The notes under the pieces were generated by a model, which saw nothing but the letters and a program-made list of their open reading frames with translations, did no database searches and was not told the DNA's origin. Below, one piece after another: positions 51,187 through 64,000 of a stretch of 64,000 bases of DNA. The stretch covers positions 843,154 to 907,153 of the forward strand of contig CBDBQD010000001.1 in the NCBI GenBank assembly GCA_965209115.1. Direction: 5' to 3'. Origin of the DNA: Acidimicrobiales bacterium. GTDB lineage: Bacteria > Actinomycetota > Acidimicrobiia > Acidimicrobiales > CATQHL01. The first letter of the stretch is position 1. Each line of letters opens with the position of its first letter. The position numbers and the translations under genes were made by a program.

Positions 51187-51299
51187 GTGGTGAGCCTCCC
51201 GATCCGCCGGCCTCGCCTCGGTCTCCTCTCGCCCGCGCCCGCCGGTGATCTTACCCGCCGCCGGCGGGCGGTCGGTCCGGGGGTTCTCGCCGGTCGCTG

Positions 51300-52040
51300 T
51301 TACTGGGGCGTTTCGCCTTCGCGGTCGCCGAGTTGGGCGCGGAGCGCGGCCAACTCGGCCTCGGCGGCGCGGCGGGCGGTTTCGGCGGCGCGGCGGGCGT
51401 CTGCTTCGGCGCGGCGGGCGGTTTCGGCGGCGTCGCGTTGGCGGCGGGTTTCTTCGTGGTCGGGCAGCCAGAGGCCGGTGCGGGGGTCGCGGAGGCGCAG
51501 GCGGCCCGGCGCGGCGTGGAGTTCCAGGCCGAGGGCTTCGCTGTGGGCGCGGAGGCCGCTCCCTTCGGGGGTGGTGGGTATGGGCTCCCAGGCGCCGCCG
51601 GCGAGGCGGTCGGCTTGCAGCATCGGGGTGTAGAGGTCGCCGCCGGTGGGGTCGAGGCGCCAGTACTCGCCTGCGCCGATCTCCAGGTAGATCCCGGGCT
51701 TTTCGAGGAGGTCCCGGTCGCTGGTGCGCGCCGAGGCGATCTCCAGCACGAACGCCGGCGCGCCGGACTCCCACAGCCGGTAGCTGGCCGCCGGCTCGAG
51801 GGGGCCGGGGTCCACGCCGAAGCTCACGAACAGGTCCGGCGCCACGAACTCGGGGTCCGGGCGCGGGCGGTAGTAGAGGTTGCGGTCCGAGCACACGAAG
51901 CAGTCCCGGCGCGCCGCGAAGAAGTCGCCCAGCGCGATGAAGGCCTGCAGGCGGACCCGCGAGTGCAGCCCGGACTCGGCCATCTCAGGCGTCGTGGCGG
52001 GGTACGCCACGTCGGGATCCAGTTCGGCCAGCACGCTCAT
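51300..52040 (-). CDS. Uma2-family (DUF820) endonuclease with C-terminal heptad-repeat tail, copy A (246 aa)
   Basis: PDLFVSF...PAFVLEIASARTSDRDLLEKPGIYLEIGAGEYWRLDP is the Uma2 PD-(D/E)xK core. ATG 52040 is preceded by gagaggagg. Confidence 0.8.
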   Translation of the reverse strand: MSVLAELDPDVAYPATTPEMAESGLHSRVRLQAFIALGDFFAARRDCFVCSDRNLYYRPRPDPEFVAPDLFVSFGVDPGPLEPAASYRLWESGAPAFVLEIASARTSDRDLLEKPGIYLEIGAGEYWRLDPTGGDLYTPMLQADRLAGGAWEPIPTTPEGSGLRAHSEALGLELHAAPGRLRLRDPRTGLWLPDHEETRRQRDAAETARRAEADARRAAETARRAAEAELAALRAQLGDREGETPQ

Positions 52041-52380
52041 CGTCGCCTCCTCTCTCGCCGCGGCGGCGCGCCCCGGCACCACAGGCTACCCCGCCCGCCG
52101 GCAGCGCCGGCCCGGCCGAGATCGACGCGCCGCGGCGCCGCGCCCCGGCACCGCAGGCTGCCCCGCCCCCCGCCGCGCCGCGAACCCGACCGCTCACGAC
52201 ACGACATCATATCAGGTGATTGTTCGAAAACTCATGGAATGTCATTGCGGGTCGGGAGTCGGGCCGCGGCCGGGCCGGGATCCGGCCGCCCGGCCGGCAT
52301 CGGAGGCTTGATTCAGGACTCGTCGTCAACGGCCAGTGGGATCTGCCTGCCGACGAGGCGGCGGGCCGGTTCAGGAGGCG

Positions 52381-52767
52381 TCAGGCGGCCTCGACGTCGG
52401 TCAGGTCGAAGTCTCCACCTTTGAACAGCAGCGGCCGGCGCGTGGTCTCCGCGAGGGCGTATGCGAAGCAGTCGCCGAAGTTCAGTCCCGCCGGGTGGTT
52501 GCCCTTGCCGAATCTGCGCCACGCTCGCCGCGCGGCCTGCGCGTGTTCGGCTGTGACCGCCTCCAGTTCGATCCCCGCCTCGTGAATGAATGCGTCAAGT
52601 TCGTAACCGGCTGCGGGGCCGCTGCGACTCTCCAACACGATGCTCGCCTCCAAGAGGGAAGCCGCCGACATCCGCGGATTCGAGGCCCTGGCGATGGCGG
52701 TGGCGAAGTGCTCGGCATCGGGCTCGTGGAACAGGATTGCCAGGACCGCCGAGGTGTCAACGATCAC
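52381..52767 (-). CDS. vapC: PIN-domain ribonuclease toxin
   Basis: 128 aa. MIVDTSA..., the conserved acidic residues, and FGDCFAYALA. Confidence 0.85.
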   Translation of the reverse strand: MIVDTSAVLAILFHEPDAEHFATAIARASNPRMSAASLLEASIVLESRSGPAAGYELDAFIHEAGIELEAVTAEHAQAARRAWRRFGKGNHPAGLNFGDCFAYALAETTRRPLLFKGGDFDLTDVEAA

Positions 52768-53021
52768 CTGGGCAGCCCTCGGTCGTCGTACAGGAGATCG
52801 CCGTGCTCCGCCGCCGAGGGGCCGTCGCCCATCATGTCGGCGCAGCGTTCTCCTATGGCGAGAAGTCTCCGGACCGTTGCCTGCGCGCTGCGCTCGCTTC
52901 TCTCGCGTTGCAGGCGCTCCCTGAGGGCCACCGTGATGGCGCCGGTCATGGTGTCGCCGGTCAGCTGCGCCAACTCATCGGCGAGTTGGCAGGTCTCCTC
53001 GTTCTTGATGTTGATGCTCAC
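52764..53021 (-). CDS. vapB: VapB-type antitoxin
   Basis: 85 aa (MSINIKNEETCQLADELAQLTGDTMTGAITVALRERL...). 4-nt ATGA overlap with vapC. Confidence 0.75.
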   Translation of the reverse strand: MSINIKNEETCQLADELAQLTGDTMTGAITVALRERLQRERSERSAQATVRRLLAIGERCADMMGDGPSAAEHGDLLYDDRGLPR

Positions 53022-53531
53022 AGACCCCTCCCAGCACTGGTAGATGCTCTGTATATACGTCTACCATACTGCGTCGTGCCGCCTTCGCCGTCGTGCCGCC
53101 TTCGCCGTCGTGCCGCCTTCGCTAGGCAGTCTCACGGGCGGGTTCTCCGGCCTGCTTGCTCGCGGTCGGGTGGTCGATGCGGACGACGCGGAGGGCACCG
53201 ACGTCTCACGGGCGGGTTCTCCGGCCTGCTTGCTCGCGGTCACGCCTTTCGATCCCGCAGAGGGAACCTCACTGAATCCACCGATTAGGGTCGGTGGGGG
53301 TTGTCGGGCGGGTGGTTTCTTGGGGGGTCGGTGGACGTCTCGGGCCGGCGGGGCGGCTGTTTCGGCGGGTGCGGCGGCGCGCTGGGGTGTTGTGGCGGCG
53401 CGGTGGGCTGCTTGGGCGGTTTCGGGGCGCGTGGGGCCGGCGTTCGGCCGTCGGTGGGGCCGGCGGGGGGGTGATCGGGGGCTGATCCGCCCGAGGCGCG
53501 CGGTCGGTCCGGGGGTTCTCGCCGGTCGCTG

Positions 53532-54314
53532 TTACTGGGGCGTTTCGCCGTCGCGGTCGCCGAGCTGGGCGCGGAGCGCGGCCAACTCGGCTTCGGCGGC
53601 GTCGGCGCGGTCTTCGGCGGCGCGGCGGGCGGCGGCCTCGGCGCGGCGGGCGGCGGCCGCGGCGCGGCGGGCGTCTGCTTCGGCGCGGCGGGCGGTTTCG
53701 GCGGCGTCGCGTTGGCGGCGGGTTTCTTCGTGGTCGGGCAGCCACAGGCCGGTGCGGGGGTCGCGGAGGCGCAGGCGGCCCGGCGCGGCGTGGAGTTCCA
53801 GGCCGAGGGCTTCGCTGTGGGCGCGGAGGCCGCTCCCTTCGGGGGTGGTGGGTATGGGCTCCCAGGCGCCGCCGGCGAGGCGGTCGGCTTGCAGCATCGG
53901 GGTGTAGAGGTCGCCGCCGGTGGGGTCGAGGCGCCAGTACTCGCCTGCGCCGATCTCCAGGTAGATCCCGGGCTTTTCGAGGAGGTCCCGGTCGCTGGTG
54001 CGCGCCGAGGCGATCTCCAGCACGAACGCCGGCGCGCCGGACTCCCACAGCCGGTAGCTGGCCGCGGGCTCGAGGGGGCCGGGGTCCACGCCGAAGCTCA
54101 CGAACAGGTCCGGCGCCACGAACTCGGGGTCCGGGCGCGGGCGGTAGTAGAGGTTGCGGTCCGAGCACACGAAGCAGTCCCGGCGCGCCGCGAAGAAGTC
54201 GCCCAGCGCGATGAAGGCCTGCAGGCGGACCCGCGAGTGCAGCCCGGACTCGGCCATCTCAGGCGTCGTGGCGGGGTACGCCACGTCGGGATCCAGTTCG
54301 GCCAGCACGCTCAT
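53532..54314 (-). CDS. Uma2-family endonuclease, copy B (260 aa)
   Basis: Body identical to copy A as far as I can read. The tail is longer by 14 aa. Confidence 0.8.
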   Translation of the reverse strand: MSVLAELDPDVAYPATTPEMAESGLHSRVRLQAFIALGDFFAARRDCFVCSDRNLYYRPRPDPEFVAPDLFVSFGVDPGPLEPAASYRLWESGAPAFVLEIASARTSDRDLLEKPGIYLEIGAGEYWRLDPTGGDLYTPMLQADRLAGGAWEPIPTTPEGSGLRAHSEALGLELHAAPGRLRLRDPRTGLWLPDHEETRRQRDAAETARRAEADARRAAAAARRAEAAARRAAEDRADAAEAELAALRAQLGDRDGETPQ

Positions 54315-54825
54315 CGTCGCCTCCTCTCTCGCCTCTCTCGCCGCGGCGGCGCGCCCCGGCACCACAGGCTACCCCGCCCGCCGGCAGCGCCGGCCCGGCC
54401 GAGATCGACGCGCCGCGGCGCCGCGCCCCGGCACCGCAGGCTGCCCCGCCCCCCGCCGCGCCGCGAACCCGACCGCTCACGACACGACATCATATCAGGT
54501 GATTGTTCGAAAACTCATGGAATGTCATTGCGGGTCGGGAGTCGGGCCGCGGCCGGGCCGGGATCCGGCCGCCCCGCCGGCGCCGCAGGCGAGCCGGCCG
54601 TCCGCGCCGACTCGGGGTTCTTGAGCTACGACCTCCTCGGCCGCCTCGACGCCCAGTGGCGGCGCTCACCGCCGCAGCCCAGATCGCGGCGCCGGCCGCG
54701 CCTGCTCGGCCAGCGCCGGCGCGAGTCGTCCCAGGGCCGCATCGACGTGTTGCCTTGTTGTGTTCGGCGGTTCGGGCTTCATCGGGGCGGCGGGCGGTCG
54801 GTCCGGGGGTTCTCGCCGGTCGCTG

Positions 54826-55524
54826 TTACTGGGGCGTTTCGCCTTCGCGGTCGCCGAGCTGGGCGCGGAGCGCGGCCAACTCGGCCTCGGCGGCGCGGCG
54901 GGCGGTTTCGGCGGCGTCGCGTTGGCGGCGGGTTTCTTCGTGGTCGGGCAGCCACAGGCCGGTGCGGGGGTCGCGGAGGCGCAGGCGGCCCGGCGCGGCG
55001 TGGAGTTCCAGGCCGAGGGCTTCGCTGTGGGCGCGGAGGCCGCTCCCTTCGGGGGTGGTGGGGATGGGCGCCCAGGCGCCGCCGGCGAGGCGGTCGCCTT
55101 GCAGCATCGGGGTGTAGAGGTCGCCGCCGGTGGGGTCGAGGCGCCAGTACTCGCCTGCGCCGATCTCCAGGTAGATCCCGGGCTTTTCGAGGAGGTCCCG
55201 GTCGCTGGTGCGCGCCGAGGCGATCTCCAGCACGAACGCCGGCGCGCCGGACTCCCACAGCCGGTAGCTGGCCGCCGGCTCGAGGGGGCCGGGGTCCACG
55301 CCGAAGCTCACGAACAGGTCCGGCGCCACGAACTCGGGGTCCGGGCGCGGGCGGTAGTAGAGGTTGCGGTCCGAGCACACGAAGCAGTCCCGGCGCCCCG
55401 CGAAGAAGTCGCCCAGCGCGATGAAGGCCTGCAGGCGGACCCGCGAGTGCAGCCCGGACTCGGCCATCTCAGGCGTCGTGGCGGGGTACGCCACGTCGGG
55501 ATCCAGTTCGGCCAGCACGCTCAT
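54826..55524 (-). CDS. Uma2-family endonuclease, copy C (232 aa)
   Basis: Three substitutions seen relative to A and B (A->G in FFAGRRD, A->G in MLQGDR, E->A in GAWAPIP). The tail is shorter by 14 aa. The upstream region differs from A and B. Confidence 0.8.
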   Translation of the reverse strand: MSVLAELDPDVAYPATTPEMAESGLHSRVRLQAFIALGDFFAGRRDCFVCSDRNLYYRPRPDPEFVAPDLFVSFGVDPGPLEPAASYRLWESGAPAFVLEIASARTSDRDLLEKPGIYLEIGAGEYWRLDPTGGDLYTPMLQGDRLAGGAWAPIPTTPEGSGLRAHSEALGLELHAAPGRLRLRDPRTGLWLPDHEETRRQRDAAETARRAAEAELAALRAQLGDREGETPQ

Positions 55525-56041
55525 CGTCGCCTCCTCTCTCGCCTCTCTCGCCGCGGCGCCGCGCCCCGGCACCACAGGCTACCCCGCCCGCCGGCAGCGC
55601 CGGCCCGGTCGAGATCGACGCCCCGCGGCGCCGCGCCCCGGCACCGCAGGCTGCCCCGCCCCTCGCCGCGCCGCGAACCCGACCGCTCACGACACCATAT
55701 GATACTCTCTATATACGGGAAACGACACGAAACTTCGTTTCCTTGGCCCACGCGGCCACCATGCGCTGCGCTCGCGGCGACATGCGCCCGCGGATCACGG
55801 ATCCGTCCCTGATCGACACCTGGGCCTCTCCGCCGCTGTCTGCGACCCTGTCATGGGGCGTCCCGTCGCCGCGGGGCTTCGGGCGGTTACGGGCCGGCGG
55901 CCGGGGTGGCGTGGCTCGCGTCCTGTGCGGGTGGTATTGCTCTCGACCTCGTGAGTGCGGTATCGTGGGTGTGTAGCGATGCGCTCTCTCGGCCCGGTCG
56001 CGGGCCTTGGAGCGCGGCCCGAATTCTCAGGAGGTTCCGAG

Positions 56042-59000
56042 ATGGCCGAGCGCGGGGCATGCAGGTCGCTGTCGGGGCGGGTCGTCGGGCCGGCGGCGCG
56101 GAGTCCCCTCCCCCCCCTTACTTTGTTGGCGCGCCGGGCTGCGAGGCGTGGCGGGCTGTCGGGGCTCGCGCTGGTGCTGCTGGCGGCGACGCTGGTGGCG
56201 CTGCCCGCTGATCGGGCCGGCGCGCAGCAGACGCAGACCTTCGTCGCCAACACCGGCCAGAGTGGCCTTGCTGGGACACATTTGGAATATGATTTCGCCC
56301 AGGCGTTCACGACCGGCTCCAACAGCGGGGGCTACAGCCTGCGCAGCGTCGGCGTGGATTTCGCCACCATCGACAGCGCCTTCAGCTCTTCGTCCCTCAC
56401 CGCCAGGATCCACGCCGACTCCGGCGGGTCTCCGGGCAGCTCGCTGGGGACCCTGACCAACCCCGCCAGCTTTCCCGCCTCCAGCTCGGACCAGACGCTG
56501 ACCTTCACGAGCAGCGCGGGCATCGACCTTGAGGCGAACACCACGTACTTCGTGTTGATCGATCTAAGCAGTGCCGAGTCTACTTCGGTGATACGCCTAA
56601 CGGGTTCGGACGGCGAGGACAGCGGGGGCCAGGCCGGCTGGAGCATCGGCAACGGTTTCTCGAGACGAGCATGGAACACAACAGGCGCGTGGACCACCTT
56701 CACGTCATCACTGAAACTCAGCCTCGGCGGCGTCAGCAAGCCCTTCCTGGTGAGCAACTCCGGGCAGGCGAACGGCGGCACCGGCAACTTCGTGCAGCAC
56801 GACCACGCCCAGGCGTTCACGACGGGCGCCAACGCCGGCGGGTACACCCTGACGGGCGTCGACTTCTCGTTTCCGCAAATCAACGACGGCGGGCTGGCGG
56901 GGAAGCTGACTGCCGAGATCAGAAGCGACAGCAGCGGAGCGCCGGGCGCGGTGGTCGCCACCCTGACCAAGCCCGGCACGATCGCCGCCGGCACGAACAG
57001 CTTCACGCACTCGGGCGTGGCGCTCGCGGCGAACACCACGTACTGGGCGGTGCTGGACGTCACCCTGGTCCTGCAGCCCGGCGCCAACACCATCCAGAAC
57101 ACCGCGTCGGACGCCGAGGACGCCGGCGGCGCGGACGGCTGGACCATCGCCGACGATGGCCACTACCGGACCTGGAACACCTCGGGCGCCTGGACCTCCT
57201 TCAGCCAGTCCCGCAAGATGACCATCCACGGCACGGCCGTCGAGACCGTCGAGACGGAGACCTTCGTCGCCAACACCGGCCAGGCGGACGGAGGCACCTC
57301 GTTTCTGGGCAATGACTTCCACCAGGCCTTCACCACCGGCTCCAACAGCTTCGGCTACAGCCTGCACAGCGTCGACGTGGAGTTCTCCACCATCGACAGC
57401 GCCTTCAGTTCCTCGGCGCTGACCGCCAGCATCCACGCCGCCTCCGGCGGGTCTCCGGGCAGCTCGCTGGGGACCCTGACCAACCCCGCCAGCTTCCCCG
57501 CCTCCACCTCGGACCAGACGCTGACCTTCACCAGCAGCGCGGGCATCGACCTCGAGGGGAGCACCACCTACTTCCTCGTGATCGACATGGGCGCCGGCCA
57601 GGGTTCTTCGAGGGTACGCCTGACGGGTTCGGACGCCGAGGACGGCGGGGGCCTGGCCGGCTGGAGCATCGCCGACGGCGCTGGGACGAGAACGGCTTCC
57701 TCGACGGGCTCGTGGACCCCCAACGTATCGTCACTGAAGATCAGCCTCGACGGCGTCAGCAAGCCGGAGCCGCCGCGGGTGAGCATCCTTGGCGACGGCG
57801 CCGTCACCGAGGGCGTCAGCGCCAGCTTCACGCTGAGGGCGGTCCCGGCGCCCACGGCAGACCTGCCGGTGAGCGTGACGGTGACCACGACCGGCGACTT
57901 CGGCTTCGGCGCGCTGCCCACCAGCGTCACCATCCCGGCCTCGGGCACCGCGACGCTGGAGATCCCCACCACCAACGACGACGTGGACGAGGCCCACGGC
58001 TCGGTCACGGTGACGCTGGTGGACGGGTCGGACTACGACCTGGCCACGTCGCTGGGGACGGCGACGGTCCGGGTGCGCGACGACGACCCGGCGCTGGTGA
58101 AGAACACCGGTCAGTCGAGCGGCCTGGTGCAGGGCCTGCACGTGGACCTGGCGCAGGGTTTCGACACCGGCGGCAACCCCTCGGGGTACACCCTGACCAG
58201 CGTGGACGTGGCCTTCAGGCGGTCCACCGAGGACTTCGGTTCCAAGCTGACGGTCACCGTCCACAAAGGTGCCAACGGGGCGCCCGGCACGGTCGTGGGG
58301 ACCCTGGACAATCCCGCCTTCGTGAACCGGCAGGCCGGCACGTACAGCTTCACGCACCCGGGCGTCGCGCTCGAGGCGGACACCCGCTACTGGGTCGTGC
58401 TGGACGCAGCCGGACTCACGGAAGGAAACAGCCAGGTAAAATTCACGCAGAGCAACTCCGAGGACGAGGGCGCCGCGCCCGGCTGGAGCATCAACAACGA
58501 CGCTCGCATCCGCGCGCAGGGGGGCGGCAACTGGATCACCCTCGTCGGCGGCTCCACTCTGTCGATGGGAGTCAACGGCCGGCTGCTGCCCCACGCGGAC
58601 GGCTCCTACACCGTGCCCTTCGACTGGCCGCTGAAGCCGCTCGGTCTGGGCGCCGGCGAGACGTTCCGGCTGCTGTTCATGACCGAAGACCACCGCGACG
58701 CCACCGCCGCCGACATCGGCGTCTACGACGCCCACGTGCGGGAGGCCGCCCGCGACGGGCACGCCGACATCCGGCGCTACGCCGACCACTTCCGGGTGGT
58801 CGGCTCCACCGCCGCGGTGGACGCCCGCGACCACACCCGGACCAACCCCAACAACGCCGGGCACACGGACGCGGAGGTCTGGTGGCTGAACGGCGAGCGC
58901 GTCGCGGCGAACAACGCCGGCTTCTGGTCCGACACCTGGGAGAACTGGGCGATGGCGGACCGCCGCTTCGAGAGCGGCGAGAGGAGCACCTCGAACGACT

Positions 59001-62000
59001 GGCCGTGGACCGGCACCCGCACCGACGGTAGGAAGGAGGCGAACCCTCTGGGCGCCAGCAACGCCCGGCGCGGACGGTTCTCGACCACCGACGCGGACAC
59101 CGGCCCCATCAGCTACAACACCATCGCCAGCACCCAGGACCACGCGTTCTACGGCATCTCGCCCCTGTTCCGGGTCGAGCCCACGCCGGTGAACGCGCCG
59201 CCCGGTGAGCCGGCGGTGATGAGCAACCTCGGCCAGGCCGACGGCGCGGCGTTGACTGTGACGACTGCCGGTACCGTGCGTGACCGCGCGCAGTCGTTCA
59301 CGACGGGCAAGAACGGCGGCCACTACCGCCTCAACAGCGTCGACGTCGAGTTCGCCGAGATCGGCGACGCCGACGCCGCCCGTGATCTGAGGGTACAGAT
59401 CTGGGCCGGCTCCGGCGGCTCGCCGGGCAGTACCGCCGCCGACGTCCTCGCCGACCTGGCGCGCCCCTCCATGCCGGTGGGCAGCAGCGACCAGACCTTC
59501 ACCTTCACCTACCAGGGCGACGACGGTTCGGGGCTGCGGCTGGAGCCGAACACCACCTACTGGGTGTATGTGTACGACGCGTCCGTGCAGCCCAACAGCA
59601 CGTACACCCTTCGCGCCACCGCGTCGAACTCCGAGCGCCTGCAGGGCCTGCGCCTGCCCGAGGGCTGGAGCATCGGCGACGGCCACAGTTCCTGGTCGCT
59701 CTACCCCAACCCCGCCGTCTCCTGGAGCACCCACTCCGAGGCGCTCAAGATCGGCCTGAACCTGGGGGCCGCCGACGCCTTCGTGCAGTTCCGCACCTGC
59801 GCGGGCACGGTCTCGGGCAACGACTGCGACACCGGCTGGGTGGTCGCCAACTACAACAGGCACGACCCGCCGCCCACGATCACGCTGACCGAGGGCGGCC
59901 CGGCGGTGACCTACCAGTGGCAGGCGGTGGACCCCCACCAGCGCCGGCACTTCTACGTCGCCAGCCAGGTGGCTGAGCCGCTCAGCCACCACGGCGGCTA
60001 CATCGGGCCGGGCCAACCGGACCGCGACCGGCTGATGTGCCACACCGGGAGCCGCAGCCCCTACAACCTGGGCGACCCCATCGTCGACGGGCTTCGCCGG
60101 GACGGGATCAACTTCGGTTACGGCAGCACCGCCGGCCCGCTGCTGGACCGCCACGACGGCTGCCCCTTCTCGTCGCAGTCCGTCTACGAGGGCGACGCCA
60201 ACAAGTGGCGCCCGGTGAGCCTCGCCGCCGGCCAGGACAGCGACGCCTTCGACCACGGGACGTTCCTGATCCACCGGCCCCACGCCGTCGGCCACAACTT
60301 CTATGAGAATGGCGTGCTGTACCAGGTGAAAGGCTTCGACTACCCCGAGGTGCGGGTGCCGCTCATCATCCGCGACGACGACGAGTGGGAGCAGACCCTG
60401 GAGTTCTCCATCGACGACGGGACCACCTGGACGTCCATCGAGGACGGCGGGCTCAATCTGGCCTTCCCGGCCTCGCTGAACACGGGGCGCAAGGCGCACT
60501 ACTTCTGGGTGCGGACGAAGAACGACCCGCCGGCGGACCAGGACAAGCGCTTCTCCATCAGCGCCGACTTCGCCAAGCCGCTGTTGCGGAGCGGCACGTC
60601 GGAGTACTTCCGGTCCCACCGGGTCTGGTTCACCAGCCCCGCCGCCTCGCACCTGCACTCCTTCCGCGCTTACGACGGGCCCGCCGTCAGCGCCGGCTCG
60701 GTCACGGTCAGCCGCACGCCGATCCAGGTCGAGATCCACGTCGGCGCCAACGTGGTCGGCAACGTGACCTTCCAGGTCGAGGCCTACAAGCTGTACGAGC
60801 GCAGCGACAACCAGATCTCGACGGAGACGCCGCCGAAGACGGTGCGCACCGACAGCTTCAGCTTCCACCGCACGCTGGGCTCCTGCGTGGGCTGCCAGCG
60901 GCTGCTGGGCGAGCTGCCCGACCCGGTGGTGGAGCGCGTGGGCGACCTGAGCTACGCCAACCTCTCCGACACGGGCATCGACTTGAGCTGGCCGCGGGTG
61001 GTCGGCGCCGAGGGCTACGAGGTGCGCTACTGGTCCACCACGTCGCCCTTCCCCGGCGTCCCCGCCGACGAGGCCTGGTTCGGGGCCGAGCCCAACGACC
61101 CGGCCTCGAACATCCGCCACCTGGAGCCGGACACCGAGTACCGGGCGGTGGTCTACTACCAGGACCACGGCGCGACCCAGCTGAGCACCGCCAGCCCGGT
61201 GATTCGCTTCACCACGCTTGCGGCGGGCTCGCCCGTGCAGGCGGAGCCCACGTCGGTGATCGTGGAGCGGGTGCCGGAGGTGTCGATCAGCGCCGCCGCC
61301 GGGACCATCACCGAGGGCGAGGACGCGGTCTACACGGTCACCGTGGACCCCGCGCCCGACGCGCCGCTGGACGTCAGGGTGAGCGTGGTCGGCCCATCCG
61401 TGGTCGCCGCCCAGCACCTGGGCGAGCGCACGGTCAACGTGCCCACCGGCGGCAGCGCCACCTTCACCATCCCCACCGTCGACGACACCAGTTGGGGCTC
61501 CAACGGGATGCTCGGCGCGACGGTGCAGTTCGGCGAGGGCTACCGGCTGAACAAGTTCAAGAGCTACGCCAGCGTCTACGTCGCCAACAACGACCTGCCG
61601 CCGCCGCCGCCGGTCCAGCTCAAGCGCGTCTCCGACACGACGGCGACCGTCGCCTGGAAGCCGCAGGGGGACGGCGCGTCCTACCTGGTCGTCTGGCACG
61701 AGAGCTTCACGGGCATCCCGGTGTTGACGGAAGTCACGACCACCGCGACCGAGCACCAGCTCACCGGCCTGAAGCCCCGGTCGCAATACGTGGTCTCCGT
61801 CCTTCACGGGACGAACCAGCTGGACAAGATCACAGTGCGGACCCTCGCCGCCGGCGCGACGCCGAAGACCTTCACGGTGGACTTCGAGACGCCCGCGCCC
61901 AACACGTCCGTGCCGCTGATCAGCGTGACCGCCGACGGCAACGTGGCCGAGGGCGGGGACGCCACCTTCACGGTCAGCGCCGACCCGGCCCCGGCTGAGG

Positions 62001-64000
62001 ACCTGGACGTGAGCGTCACGGTGTCGCAGAGCGACGACTCCGGGATATCCATAGGACAGCAGACGGTGACCATCCCGACTGCGGGCTACGCCACGCTGAC
62101 GGTGGCCACCACCAACGACGAGGTGGACGAGGCCGACGGATCGGTCACGGTCACCATCGACGCCAGCGACAACCTCGACTACCGGGTGTCCTCGTCCCAG
62201 GGGACGGCCATCGTGGTCGTGTCCGACGACGACGGCGGCTACACCGTCAACCAGGGAACGATCGCCAGGGTCAAGGATCTGGCGTCGCAGACGCACAACG
62301 GCGCGGCCCACGTGAACCGCTGGAACCGGGTGCTGCTGGCCTTCGGCGAGCACGACGGCACCGGCGTCACCGGCGGCCCGATGACCGCCGCCGAGGCGCA
62401 GGACATGGCCGACCGCCACAGCAGCCCCGTCTGGGACCTCGTCGTCGCCGAGCTGACGGCCCTCGAAGCGGCGCAGAACGCCCCGCCGCCGCCCACGCCT
62501 GAGGTGAGCGTCACCGCGGGCAGCGGGGTGACCGAGGGCGGCGACGCCACCTTCACGGTGACGGCCAGCCCGGCCCCGGCTGCGGACCTGGACGTGAGCG
62601 TGACGGTGTCGCAGAGCGGCGACTTCGGCGCGACCACGGGCCAGCGGACGGTGACCATCCCGACCACGGGCAGCGTCACCCTCACCGTGGGCACCACGGA
62701 CGACAGTACGGACGAGACCGACGGCTCGGTCACCGCAACGGCGAACGCGGGCAGCGACTACACGGTGTCGTCCACCCAGGGGGCGGCCACGGTGTCGGTG
62801 TCGGACAACGACGACGCGCCCACGCCGGTGGTGAGCGTCACCGCCGCCGCAGGCGGCACCGAGGGCGACCCCGTGACCTTCACGCTGACGGCCAACCCGG
62901 CCCCGGCCGCGGATCTGGCGGTGAGCGTCACGGTCGCCACCACCGGCGACTTCGGGTACGGGACGCTGCCCGCCAGCGTCACCATCCCGGCGTCGGGCAG
63001 CGCCACGGTGACCATCGCCACCACCGACGACGACGTCGACGAGGCCGACGGATCGGTCACCCTCACCGTCGACGCGGCCAGCGGCTACACGGTCGGCGCG
63101 CCGTCCACGGAGACGGTGAGCGTCACCGACGACGACGAACAGGTCGAGGAGCAGACGGGCTACACGGTCGACCCGGACGTGGTCGCCAGCGTCCAGGCGC
63201 TGGCCGCGCAGACCCAGCACGGCACGGCCCACGTGAACCGCTGGAACCGGGTGCTCGTCGCCTTCGGCGAGCACGACGGGACCGGCGTCACGGGCGGCGC
63301 GATGACGGCGTCGGAGGCGCAGGACATGGCGGACCGCCACAGCAGCCCCGTCTGGGACCAGGTGGTGACCGAGCTGACGGCGCTGGAAGCGGCGTCAACG
63401 CAGACGCCGCCGCCGCCCACGCCTGAGGTGAGCATCACCGCGGGCAGCGGGGTGACCGAGGGCGGCGACGCCACCTTCACGGTGACGGCCAGCCCGGCCC
63501 CGGCGGCCAACCTGGCGGTGAGCGTCACGGTCACGCAGAGCGGCGACTACGGCGCCACCACGGGCCGGCGCACGGTGACGATCCCGGCCTCGGGCAGCGT
63601 CACCCTGACGGTGGGCACCACCGACGACCAGGCGGACGAGTCCGACGGCTCGGTCACGGCCACGGTGAACGCGGGCAGCGGCTACACCGTGGCCTCGTCG
63701 CAGGGCGCGGCCACGGTCAGCGTGGCCGACGACGACGACGCGCCGGTCGTGGTTCCGGTGGTGAGCATCACCGCCGGCGGGGGCGTCACCGAGGGCGGCA
63801 CGGCGACCTTCACGCTGAGCGCCGGCCCGGCGCCGGCGGCGGACCTCGCCGTCACGGTCACGATCGCGACGGAAGGCGACTACGGCGTCACGGCCGGTTC
63901 GCGCACGGTCACGATCCCGGCATCGGGCAGCGCCACGCTCACGATCGCCACGACCGGCGACCAGACCGACGAAGCCGACGGCTCGGTGACGGCGACGCTG
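56042..64000 (+). CDS. Giant secreted multi-repeat protein (surface/adhesin-like), 3' end beyond the window; NOT in the supplied ORF track
   Basis: The frame with codon starts congruent to 2 mod 3 is open from TGA 55952-55954 to nt 64000. ATG 56042 is preceded by AGGAGG (56029-56034). N-terminus MAERG...RRAARRGGLSGLALVLLAATLVALPADRAGA|QQ is a signal peptide. 2653 codons lie inside the window, with the recognisable domain repeats listed in the findings. Confidence 0.85.
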   Translation, partial: MAERGACRSLSGRVVGPAARSPLPPLTLLARRAARRGGLSGLALVLLAATLVALPADRAGAQQTQTFVANTGQSGLAGTHLEYDFAQAFTTGSNSGGYSLRSVGVDFATIDSAFSSSSLTARIHADSGGSPGSSLGTLTNPASFPASSSDQTLTFTSSAGIDLEANTTYFVLIDLSSAESTSVIRLTGSDGEDSGGQAGWSIGNGFSRRAWNTTGAWTTFTSSLKLSLGGVSKPFLVSNSGQANGGTGNFVQHDHAQAFTTGANAGGYTLTGVDFSFPQINDGGLAGKLTAEIRSDSSGAPGAVVATLTKPGTIAAGTNSFTHSGVALAANTTYWAVLDVTLVLQPGANTIQNTASDAEDAGGADGWTIADDGHYRTWNTSGAWTSFSQSRKMTIHGTAVETVETETFVANTGQADGGTSFLGNDFHQAFTTGSNSFGYSLHSVDVEFSTIDSAFSSSALTASIHAASGGSPGSSLGTLTNPASFPASTSDQTLTFTSSAGIDLEGSTTYFLVIDMGAGQGSSRVRLTGSDAEDGGGLAGWSIADGAGTRTASSTGSWTPNVSSLKISLDGVSKPEPPRVSILGDGAVTEGVSASFTLRAVPAPTADLPVSVTVTTTGDFGFGALPTSVTIPASGTATLEIPTTNDDVDEAHGSVTVTLVDGSDYDLATSLGTATVRVRDDDPALVKNTGQSSGLVQGLHVDLAQGFDTGGNPSGYTLTSVDVAFRRSTEDFGSKLTVTVHKGANGAPGTVVGTLDNPAFVNRQAGTYSFTHPGVALEADTRYWVVLDAAGLTEGNSQVKFTQSNSEDEGAAPGWSINNDARIRAQGGGNWITLVGGSTLSMGVNGRLLPHADGSYTVPFDWPLKPLGLGAGETFRLLFMTEDHRDATAADIGVYDAHVREAARDGHADIRRYADHFRVVGSTAAVDARDHTRTNPNNAGHTDAEVWWLNGERVAANNAGFWSDTWENWAMADRRFESGERSTSNDWPWTGTRTDGRKEANPLGASNARRGRFSTTDADTGPISYNTIASTQDHAFYGISPLFRVEPTPVNAPPGEPAVMSNLGQADGAALTVTTAGTVRDRAQSFTTGKNGGHYRLNSVDVEFAEIGDADAARDLRVQIWAGSGGSPGSTAADVLADLARPSMPVGSSDQTFTFTYQGDDGSGLRLEPNTTYWVYVYDASVQPNSTYTLRATASNSERLQGLRLPEGWSIGDGHSSWSLYPNPAVSWSTHSEALKIGLNLGAADAFVQFRTCAGTVSGNDCDTGWVVANYNRHDPPPTITLTEGGPAVTYQWQAVDPHQRRHFYVASQVAEPLSHHGGYIGPGQPDRDRLMCHTGSRSPYNLGDPIVDGLRRDGINFGYGSTAGPLLDRHDGCPFSSQSVYEGDANKWRPVSLAAGQDSDAFDHGTFLIHRPHAVGHNFYENGVLYQVKGFDYPEVRVPLIIRDDDEWEQTLEFSIDDGTTWTSIEDGGLNLAFPASLNTGRKAHYFWVRTKNDPPADQDKRFSISADFAKPLLRSGTSEYFRSHRVWFTSPAASHLHSFRAYDGPAVSAGSVTVSRTPIQVEIHVGANVVGNVTFQVEAYKLYERSDNQISTETPPKTVRTDSFSFHRTLGSCVGCQRLLGELPDPVVERVGDLSYANLSDTGIDLSWPRVVGAEGYEVRYWSTTSPFPGVPADEAWFGAEPNDPASNIRHLEPDTEYRAVVYYQDHGATQLSTASPVIRFTTLAAGSPVQAEPTSVIVERVPEVSISAAAGTITEGEDAVYTVTVDPAPDAPLDVRVSVVGPSVVAAQHLGERTVNVPTGGSATFTIPTVDDTSWGSNGMLGATVQFGEGYRLNKFKSYASVYVANNDLPPPPPVQLKRVSDTTATVAWKPQGDGASYLVVWHESFTGIPVLTEVTTTATEHQLTGLKPRSQYVVSVLHGTNQLDKITVRTLAAGATPKTFTVDFETPAPNTSVPLISVTADGNVAEGGDATFTVSADPAPAEDLDVSVTVSQSDDSGISIGQQTVTIPTAGYATLTVATTNDEVDEADGSVTVTIDASDNLDYRVSSSQGTAIVVVSDDDGGYTVNQGTIARVKDLASQTHNGAAHVNRWNRVLLAFGEHDGTGVTGGPMTAAEAQDMADRHSSPVWDLVVAELTALEAAQNAPPPPTPEVSVTAGSGVTEGGDATFTVTASPAPAADLDVSVTVSQSGDFGATTGQRTVTIPTTGSVTLTVGTTDDSTDETDGSVTATANAGSDYTVSSTQGAATVSVSDNDDAPTPVVSVTAAAGGTEGDPVTFTLTANPAPAADLAVSVTVATTGDFGYGTLPASVTIPASGSATVTIATTDDDVDEADGSVTLTVDAASGYTVGAPSTETVSVTDDDEQVEEQTGYTVDPDVVASVQALAAQTQHGTAHVNRWNRVLVAFGEHDGTGVTGGAMTASEAQDMADRHSSPVWDQVVTELTALEAASTQTPPPPTPEVSITAGSGVTEGGDATFTVTASPAPAANLAVSVTVTQSGDYGATTGRRTVTIPASGSVTLTVGTTDDQADESDGSVTATVNAGSGYTVASSQGAATVSVADDDDAPVVVPVVSITAGGGVTEGGTATFTLSAGPAPAADLAVTVTIATEGDYGVTAGSRTVTIPASGSATLTIATTGDQTDEADGSVTATL
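62233..64000 (+). repeat. ~921-bp intragenic super-repeat (helical module + two Calx-beta-like repeats), about 1.9 copies before the window ends
   Basis: The anchor cacgtgaaccgctggaaccgg occurs at 62309 and 63230. Long stretches after each anchor are near-identical (for example ...gcgggcagcggggtgaccgagggcggcgacgccaccttcacggtgacggccagcccggccccggc...). Confidence 0.85.

Follow-up and report, generated by a model that had tools for sequence, protein, structure and literature searches.

The window analysed here is a stretch of 64,000 nucleotides (nt) from the genome of an Acidimicrobiales bacterium (assembly GCA_965209115.1, contig CBDBQD010000001.1, positions 843,154 to 907,153 of the forward strand), and its right-hand end is occupied by the first part of a giant gene whose predicted product begins with a probable signal peptide and then carries five homologous units, here called D1 to D5. 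All five prove to be members of the choice-of-anchor R domain family (NCBIfam NF041539), and we describe their relatives, their predicted fold and putative role, and the occurrence of the gene in bacteria of several phyla.

The giant gene and its five units

On the plus strand an open frame stretches from 55955 to 64000 and on past the window end, with ATG 56042 as the best start of the giant open reading frame (ORF; 56042-64000, plus strand). It codes for at least 2652 amino acids (aa) before it is interrupted by the window end, and full-length homologues of the protein have about 2900-3400 aa. By inspection, a ribosome-binding-site-like hexamer, AGGAGG (56029-56034, plus strand), stands 7 nt 5' of the start codon. 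The content of guanine plus cytosine (GC) at the three codon positions (GC1/2/3) is 0.62/0.55/0.95, and the high GC3 (0.949) identifies the plus frame as the real coding frame. An antisense ORF of 1869 aa (57731-63340, minus strand) has a GC1 of 0.963, the mirror image of the plus-frame GC3, and was for this reason rejected as a high-GC artefact. Read by eye, the translation begins with a probable Sec-type signal peptide (56042-56224, plus strand), with RRAARR as n-region, LSGLALVLLAATLVALPA as h-region and a cleavage motif that would be cut between AGA and QQ.

The units, of ~165-190 aa each, are all on the plus strand, with D1 (56231-56743), D2 (56744-57256) and D3 (57257-57769) in direct succession, and D4 (58091-58591) and D5 (59201-59767) further downstream. 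Against NF041539 (choice_anch_R, a profile of 155 positions with a curated cut-off of 30 bits) the whole protein gives E 1e-128 and 425 bits in 5 stretches, and each unit matches on its own, nearly end to end and at 100-113 bits, as a member of the family: D1 with E 6.7e-29 and 100.8 bits (profile positions 14-152), D2 with E 1.8e-30 and 106 bits (1-155), D3 with E 4.2e-29 and 101.5 bits (2-154), D4 with E 1.1e-32 and 113.2 bits (8-154), and D5 with E 3.9e-29 and 101.6 bits (1-153). The alignment of the five units over their full length, in which D5 shows two loop insertions, has 33 invariant columns and pairwise aa identities of 35-70%, with polar motifs conserved across the units (N-x-G-Q, T-G-x-N, E-D, and G-W-S-I). 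Scanned with hidden Markov models (HMMs) built from the five units, the protein shows exactly these five copies, and the rest of the window shows none. This bears out an earlier note on this DNA, which had described five homologous copies of a module of ~170 aa; the places it gave were right, with the starts of D2, D3, and D5 1-2 nt out of frame, and its motif strings were approximate, D5 having NLGQ and SER (not N[TS]GQ and ED), D3 HQAF and GSTTYF, and D4 AQGF.

The same note had called D1 and D3 near-identical at the DNA level, which is too strong for the units as a whole, since their overall identity is 80% over 510 aligned nt (70% for the protein). In a central block of 200 nt, three of four 50-nt segments are 92-98% identical and the fourth 86%, and the block includes an exact run of 54 nt. 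The likeness of D1 and D3 is present in 38 homologues (median DNA identity 79%), so it is a trait of the family and not a local event, and local gene conversion was rejected as its source on this ground.

Family identity, extent and predicted fold

In the earlier note the domain was unassigned and possibly undescribed, a claim that falls, since NF041539 is an existing catalogue entry that covers every unit, and relatives in public records, e.g., from Microcystis, already carry the name "choice-of-anchor R domain-containing protein". The note had looked to a confident Pfam or CDD match spanning the unit as the mark of a described family, and NF041539 is such a match if an NCBIfam model counts as CDD; NCBIfam models are distributed via CDD. 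In favour of an undescribed family it can be said that the domain is without a Pfam model (0 matches for the five units even at E<=10, and no model for the 96 family members introduced below), that a sequence-profile search of the PDB found no solved structure related in sequence to the domain, and that neither NF041539 nor "choice-of-anchor R" was found named in any paper. Set against the bit scores of all units over nearly the full profile, and against a name already used in public annotations, this reading is next to untenable. A remote homology to the Pfam family DUF4082 (PF13313) is very improbable too: the sole support comes from the loosely similar motif order that the earlier note had perceived, to which can be added that presumably both domains are surface-protein modules with a beta-sandwich fold, whereas there is no HMM-level similarity to the units, DUF4082 does not match any of the five at E<=10 or the 91 other relatives, and it is absent among the 25 Pfam families listed for the 96 relatives. 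The earlier note was right to stop short of claiming this homology, as none can be demonstrated. The named members of NF041539 that we have seen are short PEP-CTERM proteins, e.g., from Microcystis, and the giant protein is unlike them in that five copies head a chain of ~3000 aa and no sorting signal can be recognised by eye at the C-terminus of its full-length homologues.

A profile of 96 sequences (the five units and 91 relatives) was run against 1.84 billion representatives, i.e., clusters at 50% identity. The number of representative proteins matched was 13,786 at E<=1e-3, 8,731 at <=1e-10, and 3,662 at <=1e-30. The partner domains found in relatives are surface-protein modules, namely PEP-CTERM (in 7/96), cadherin-like, PKD, Big_5, SWM repeat, and Calx-beta domains, and choice-of-anchor R copies reach 17 per protein, with some carriers of nearly 8000 aa. 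Proteins thousands of residues long came up in the exhaustive search; a word-indexed search of proteins returned nothing that reached about 360 aa. Several of these short matches seem frameshifted, and they are probably fragments of giant genes, which would bias counts of partner domains. Among the 150 best representatives, scanned with regular expressions for LPXTG and PEP-CTERM tails, many are fragments as well. With about 13,800 representative clusters the family is very large, yet it is absent from Pfam and is without a solved relative or a recorded experimental function. The expression "choice-of-anchor" has been explained for family A (CAA, PF20597), a surface-protein domain with LPXTG, PEP-CTERM or type IX secretion system (T9SS) anchors (bioRxiv 10.1101/2023.03.06.531300), whose members are lectins or adhesives, such as the Jonah lectins of Acanthamoeba (PMC6541295) and the Trailins of diatoms (bioRxiv 10.1101/2023.03.06.531300). 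Families A and R have the naming logic in common; they are separate families, and the analogy of name implies no homology.

A structure prediction of one unit, as the earlier note had proposed, was run on D4 with AlphaFold2 and the 96-sequence alignment and returned a confident all-beta model, a ten-strand beta-sandwich (predicted local distance difference test, pLDDT, 94; predicted template modelling score, pTM, 0.91). Foldseek found no close relative of this model in the PDB. The best matches were a domain of a baseplate protein of phage phi812 (9euj_G; template modelling (TM) score normalised to the query, TMq, 0.66; E 2.5e-4), the central fibre of mycobacteriophage Douge (gp20, 8zdp_v; TMq 0.61), the lectin-like domain of Cwp84 (4ci7; TMq 0.56), and, among carbohydrate-binding modules (CBMs; TMq 0.31-0.48), the FjoAcXE CBM (7tok) and CBM36 (1ux7). 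Against BFVD, the model matched predicted viral proteins, the best (A0A510E7Y7) with TMq 0.78, 26% identity and E 1.6e-9, and those with names were minor tail, virion-associated, and collagen-repeat proteins. The distal domains of phage tail fibres and baseplates are the best structural matches (TMq 0.61-0.78, E down to 1.6e-9), but at 14-26% identity and in an unrelated context homology with the units is not established. The lectin-like and CBM jelly rolls (4ci7, 7tok, 1ux7, and 3p6b; TMq 0.31-0.56) have the beta-sandwich fold class in common with D4, and the likeness is at that level. The only PDB entry retrieved by the sequence profiles of the units was the CBM4 of CbhA (3p6b), marginally (E 0.018-0.019 over about 30-48 residues), a similarity below any threshold for membership in CBM4 or other CBM families. 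The predicted fold class of the units is lectin/CBM-like or receptor-binding-like, and the testable hypothesis to which the confident D4 model points is a module resembling lectins and CBMs or the receptor-binding modules of phages.

Architecture of the protein and a putative binding head

The domains follow each other in the order signal peptide, D1-D2-D3, a ~107-aa Calx-beta-like module, D4, a ~200-aa insert, and D5, after which come a ~400-aa Cys-containing region, fibronectin type III (fn3) domains, and a long run of ~100-aa Calx-beta-like modules. Full-length homologues keep the 3+1+1 layout of the units, and among homologues the number of choice-of-anchor R copies goes from 2 to 6. The module between D3 and D4 (57770-58090, plus strand; VSVTV...DDDVDEAHGSVTVTL) is a Calx-beta-like or Ig-like spacer by its resemblance, seen by eye, to Calx-beta, and has 0 Pfam or NCBIfam matches; modules that resemble it, also by eye and with the motif DDxxDExDGSVTVT, fill 61900-64000. 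The Calx-beta model PF03160 gave no match at E<=1 in the window protein, nor at E<=0.01 in two full-length homologues. Pfam recognises two fn3 domains only in the whole window protein, the better of the two stretches lying at 61601-61804 (plus strand; PF00041, E 3.3e-13, aa 1854-1921), and likewise only fn3 in the full-length homologues, with about 95% of the protein, the five head domains included, invisible to it.

For the insert between D4 and D5 (58592-59200, plus strand) the searches found only 13 homologues and nothing in Pfam, NCBIfam or, by sequence, the PDB. Its GSTAAVDARD-x-T-x-T core is invariant across the aligned homologues, within the consensus ...FRVVGSTAAVDARDNT..., and its AlphaFold2 model is poor (pLDDT 57.6). 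The top three Foldseek matches of that model in the PDB were endostatin domains (E 0.5-2.2), which is no more than a lead, the pLDDT being too low for a reliable fold assignment. The Cys-containing region (59768-60967, plus strand), with the motifs FRTCAGTVSGNDCDTGW, LMCHTG, DGCPF, and HRPHAVGHNF, likewise has no family or PDB sequence match (Pfam and NCBIfam), and lies inside the most uniformly conserved segment of the protein (aa 1243-1700), where every homologue except the two most distant shows 92-95% aa identity.

From their fold, their N-terminal position and their evolutionary pattern, we consider it reasonably likely that the five NF041539 units form the multivalent ligand-binding head of a giant secreted adhesin, made by a high-GC bacterium that probably dwells in a sponge. 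What the data show is the coding frame, the five copies, their family and fold class, and the order of the domains; secretion, binding, the ligand, and the host are inferred. The units, ~165-aa all-beta sandwiches arranged 3+1+1 directly after the signal peptide, would stand at the N-terminal, presumably distal, end, and the remainder of a secreted protein of ~3000 aa, made of Calx-beta-like ~100-aa modules and fn3 domains, would serve as stalk. Such a head would most likely bind a glycan or a component of the extracellular matrix. That the partners of the family are surface-protein modules, and that the family often occurs in multiple copies in giant proteins, was also counted for an adhesin. 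Comparison with 38 five-domain homologues shows that D1, the unit at the N-terminal tip, is the most diverged of the five, with median nonsynonymous (dN) and synonymous (dS) divergences of 0.20 and 0.26 and a dN/dS of 0.67, whereas D2-D5 have a dN of about 0.02, a dS of 0.05-0.08, and a dN/dS of 0.26-0.39. This diversification of D1 fits a recognition tip, and on the predicted fold a binding role of the units is plausible. Several points count against the binding head. As far as the model goes, all structural matches amount to generic beta-sandwich similarity (TM 0.5-0.78 with low sequence identity), and beta-sandwich folds of this kind serve also as pure spacers; no ligand, binding site or experimental datum was found in the literature for any NF041539 member; the signal peptide was called by eye; the tails of full-length homologues, also read by eye, have no LPXTG, PEP-CTERM or transmembrane anchor; and the sponge origin is based on a contig label (see below) and on naming conventions for metagenome-assembled genomes (MAGs).

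A pure spacer role is the serious rival, in which the units would be structural stalk elements without a ligand of their own and any binding would take place in the insert (58592-59200) or in the Cys-containing region (59768-60967). Tandem beta-sandwich repeats commonly serve in this way, D2-D5 are under purifying selection like the remaining protein, and the region from 59768 is the most uniformly conserved part. Yet the units are found at the N-terminal tip, the long stalk is made of another type of repeat, the conserved polar motifs exceed what a hydrophobic core needs, and the fold is best matched by lectin-like domains, CBMs, and phage domains that are distal and face the receptor, so that on balance we hold the spacer role to be unlikely. 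Rather less probable still, in our view, is that the units mediate homophilic or bacterium-to-bacterium association (aggregation or matrix formation) instead of binding to a host ligand. It would agree with a gene that co-resident bacteria of several phyla have in common at high identity and in multiple copies per genome, and attachment genes might also act in biofilm formation (Robbins 2021, PMC8163846), but such association would be a variant of the binding-head model with another ligand.

Probable spread across phyla, habitat and neighbouring genes

With the part of the protein between D4 and the window end as query, 67 related loci were recovered, nearly all in long-read MAGs and often at contig ends, and several can occur in one genome (e.g., the contigs of one Dehalococcoidia isolate hold at least five). 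At the protein level the five-domain head is 80-97% identical in MAGs labelled Dehalococcoidia, Chloroflexota, Tepidiformaceae, Acidimicrobiales/Acidimicrobiia, and Binatia (the last belonging to Candidatus Binatota), and 74% in one Acidimicrobiales copy. In these pairs the dS to the window copy is about 0.05-0.2, which is incompatible with vertical descent between phyla. The GC content of the gene is about 0.70 in every host, with flanks of 0.56-0.73 that have no similarity to the window. The DNA homology to 60+ related loci starts at 56165-56296, from the h-region of the signal peptide to early D1, with none upstream, and the signal-peptide leader is therefore not conserved. The low dS, the several copies per genome, and the presence in MAGs of several phyla suggest a recent lateral spread of the gene within one habitat.

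Beside this, a second giant gene (about 1700-1960 aa) is often found 0.2-2.5 kb downstream of the homologue (loci L001, L008, L020, L021, L024, L025, L040, L047, and others). The ~100-aa Calx-beta-like repeats that it shares with the window protein are 60-70% identical, and some MAGs carry versions of this second gene that are 94-99.9% identical to each other; the window stops before the equivalent position.

The bacterium carrying the gene is probably sponge-associated. The label ROBB21-1, borne by a contig that has genes in common with the window, is presumably that of a sponge MAG of Robbins 2021, as we read it from MAG naming conventions. The best named relative of the adenosylhomocysteinase (AdoHcyase) encoded in the window (72%) comes from Candidatus Poriferisodalaceae. 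This group includes sponge symbionts, and most of the sponge symbionts in the study concerned were Acidimicrobiia (PMC11706023). Among sponge MAGs, fn3 and cadherin attachment genes are enriched in Actinobacteriota and Chloroflexota and are found among lateral transfers between phyla (Robbins 2021, PMC8163846); the transfer of attachment genes across phyla is already known in general, the present gene is not named there, and the literature yielded no specific earlier description of it as a cross-phylum adhesin. The "eukaryotic-like" attachment proteins of sponge symbionts, with fn3, cadherin, and Calx-beta domains, match the giant protein in class of architecture and in probable habitat (PMC8163846, PMC11706023). 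Studies of these genes in sponges count Pfam domains, whereas nearly all of the present protein lies outside Pfam, and since the NF041539 family is absent from it, Pfam-based surveys of symbiont "attachment" genes miss the family.

Tentatively, we suggest that this ~9-kb gene could be a "habitat gene", exchanged recently and more than once within a host-associated community, probably of sponge symbionts, with the five units, and above all the fast-evolving D1, acting as lectins for a host or matrix ligand. If the recent spread between phyla in one habitat is true, the gene would rank as a good niche-defining adhesin candidate. That a giant protein of adhesin type contains an already catalogued domain is in itself an ordinary finding, and it is the Pfam-invisible family and the cross-phylum spread that are of moderate interest; the spread of the gene may matter more than the identity of the domain.

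Upstream of the giant gene, three direct repeats occupy 51250-55800, 97-100% identical over the 300-nt cores shown, and each carries an ORF of the Uma2 family (PF05685) on the minus strand (51300-52082, 53532-54365, and 54826-55575); at their C-terminal ends these ORFs have Ala/Arg-rich repeats that vary in length. A VapC/PIN gene lies at 52381-52767 (minus strand). An identical PIN protein is encoded on the ENA contig ROBB21-1_SAMN13943214_METAG-scaffold_13164, which also has genes for AdoHcyase and a VapB-type antitoxin (PF07704) as well as two Uma2 genes.

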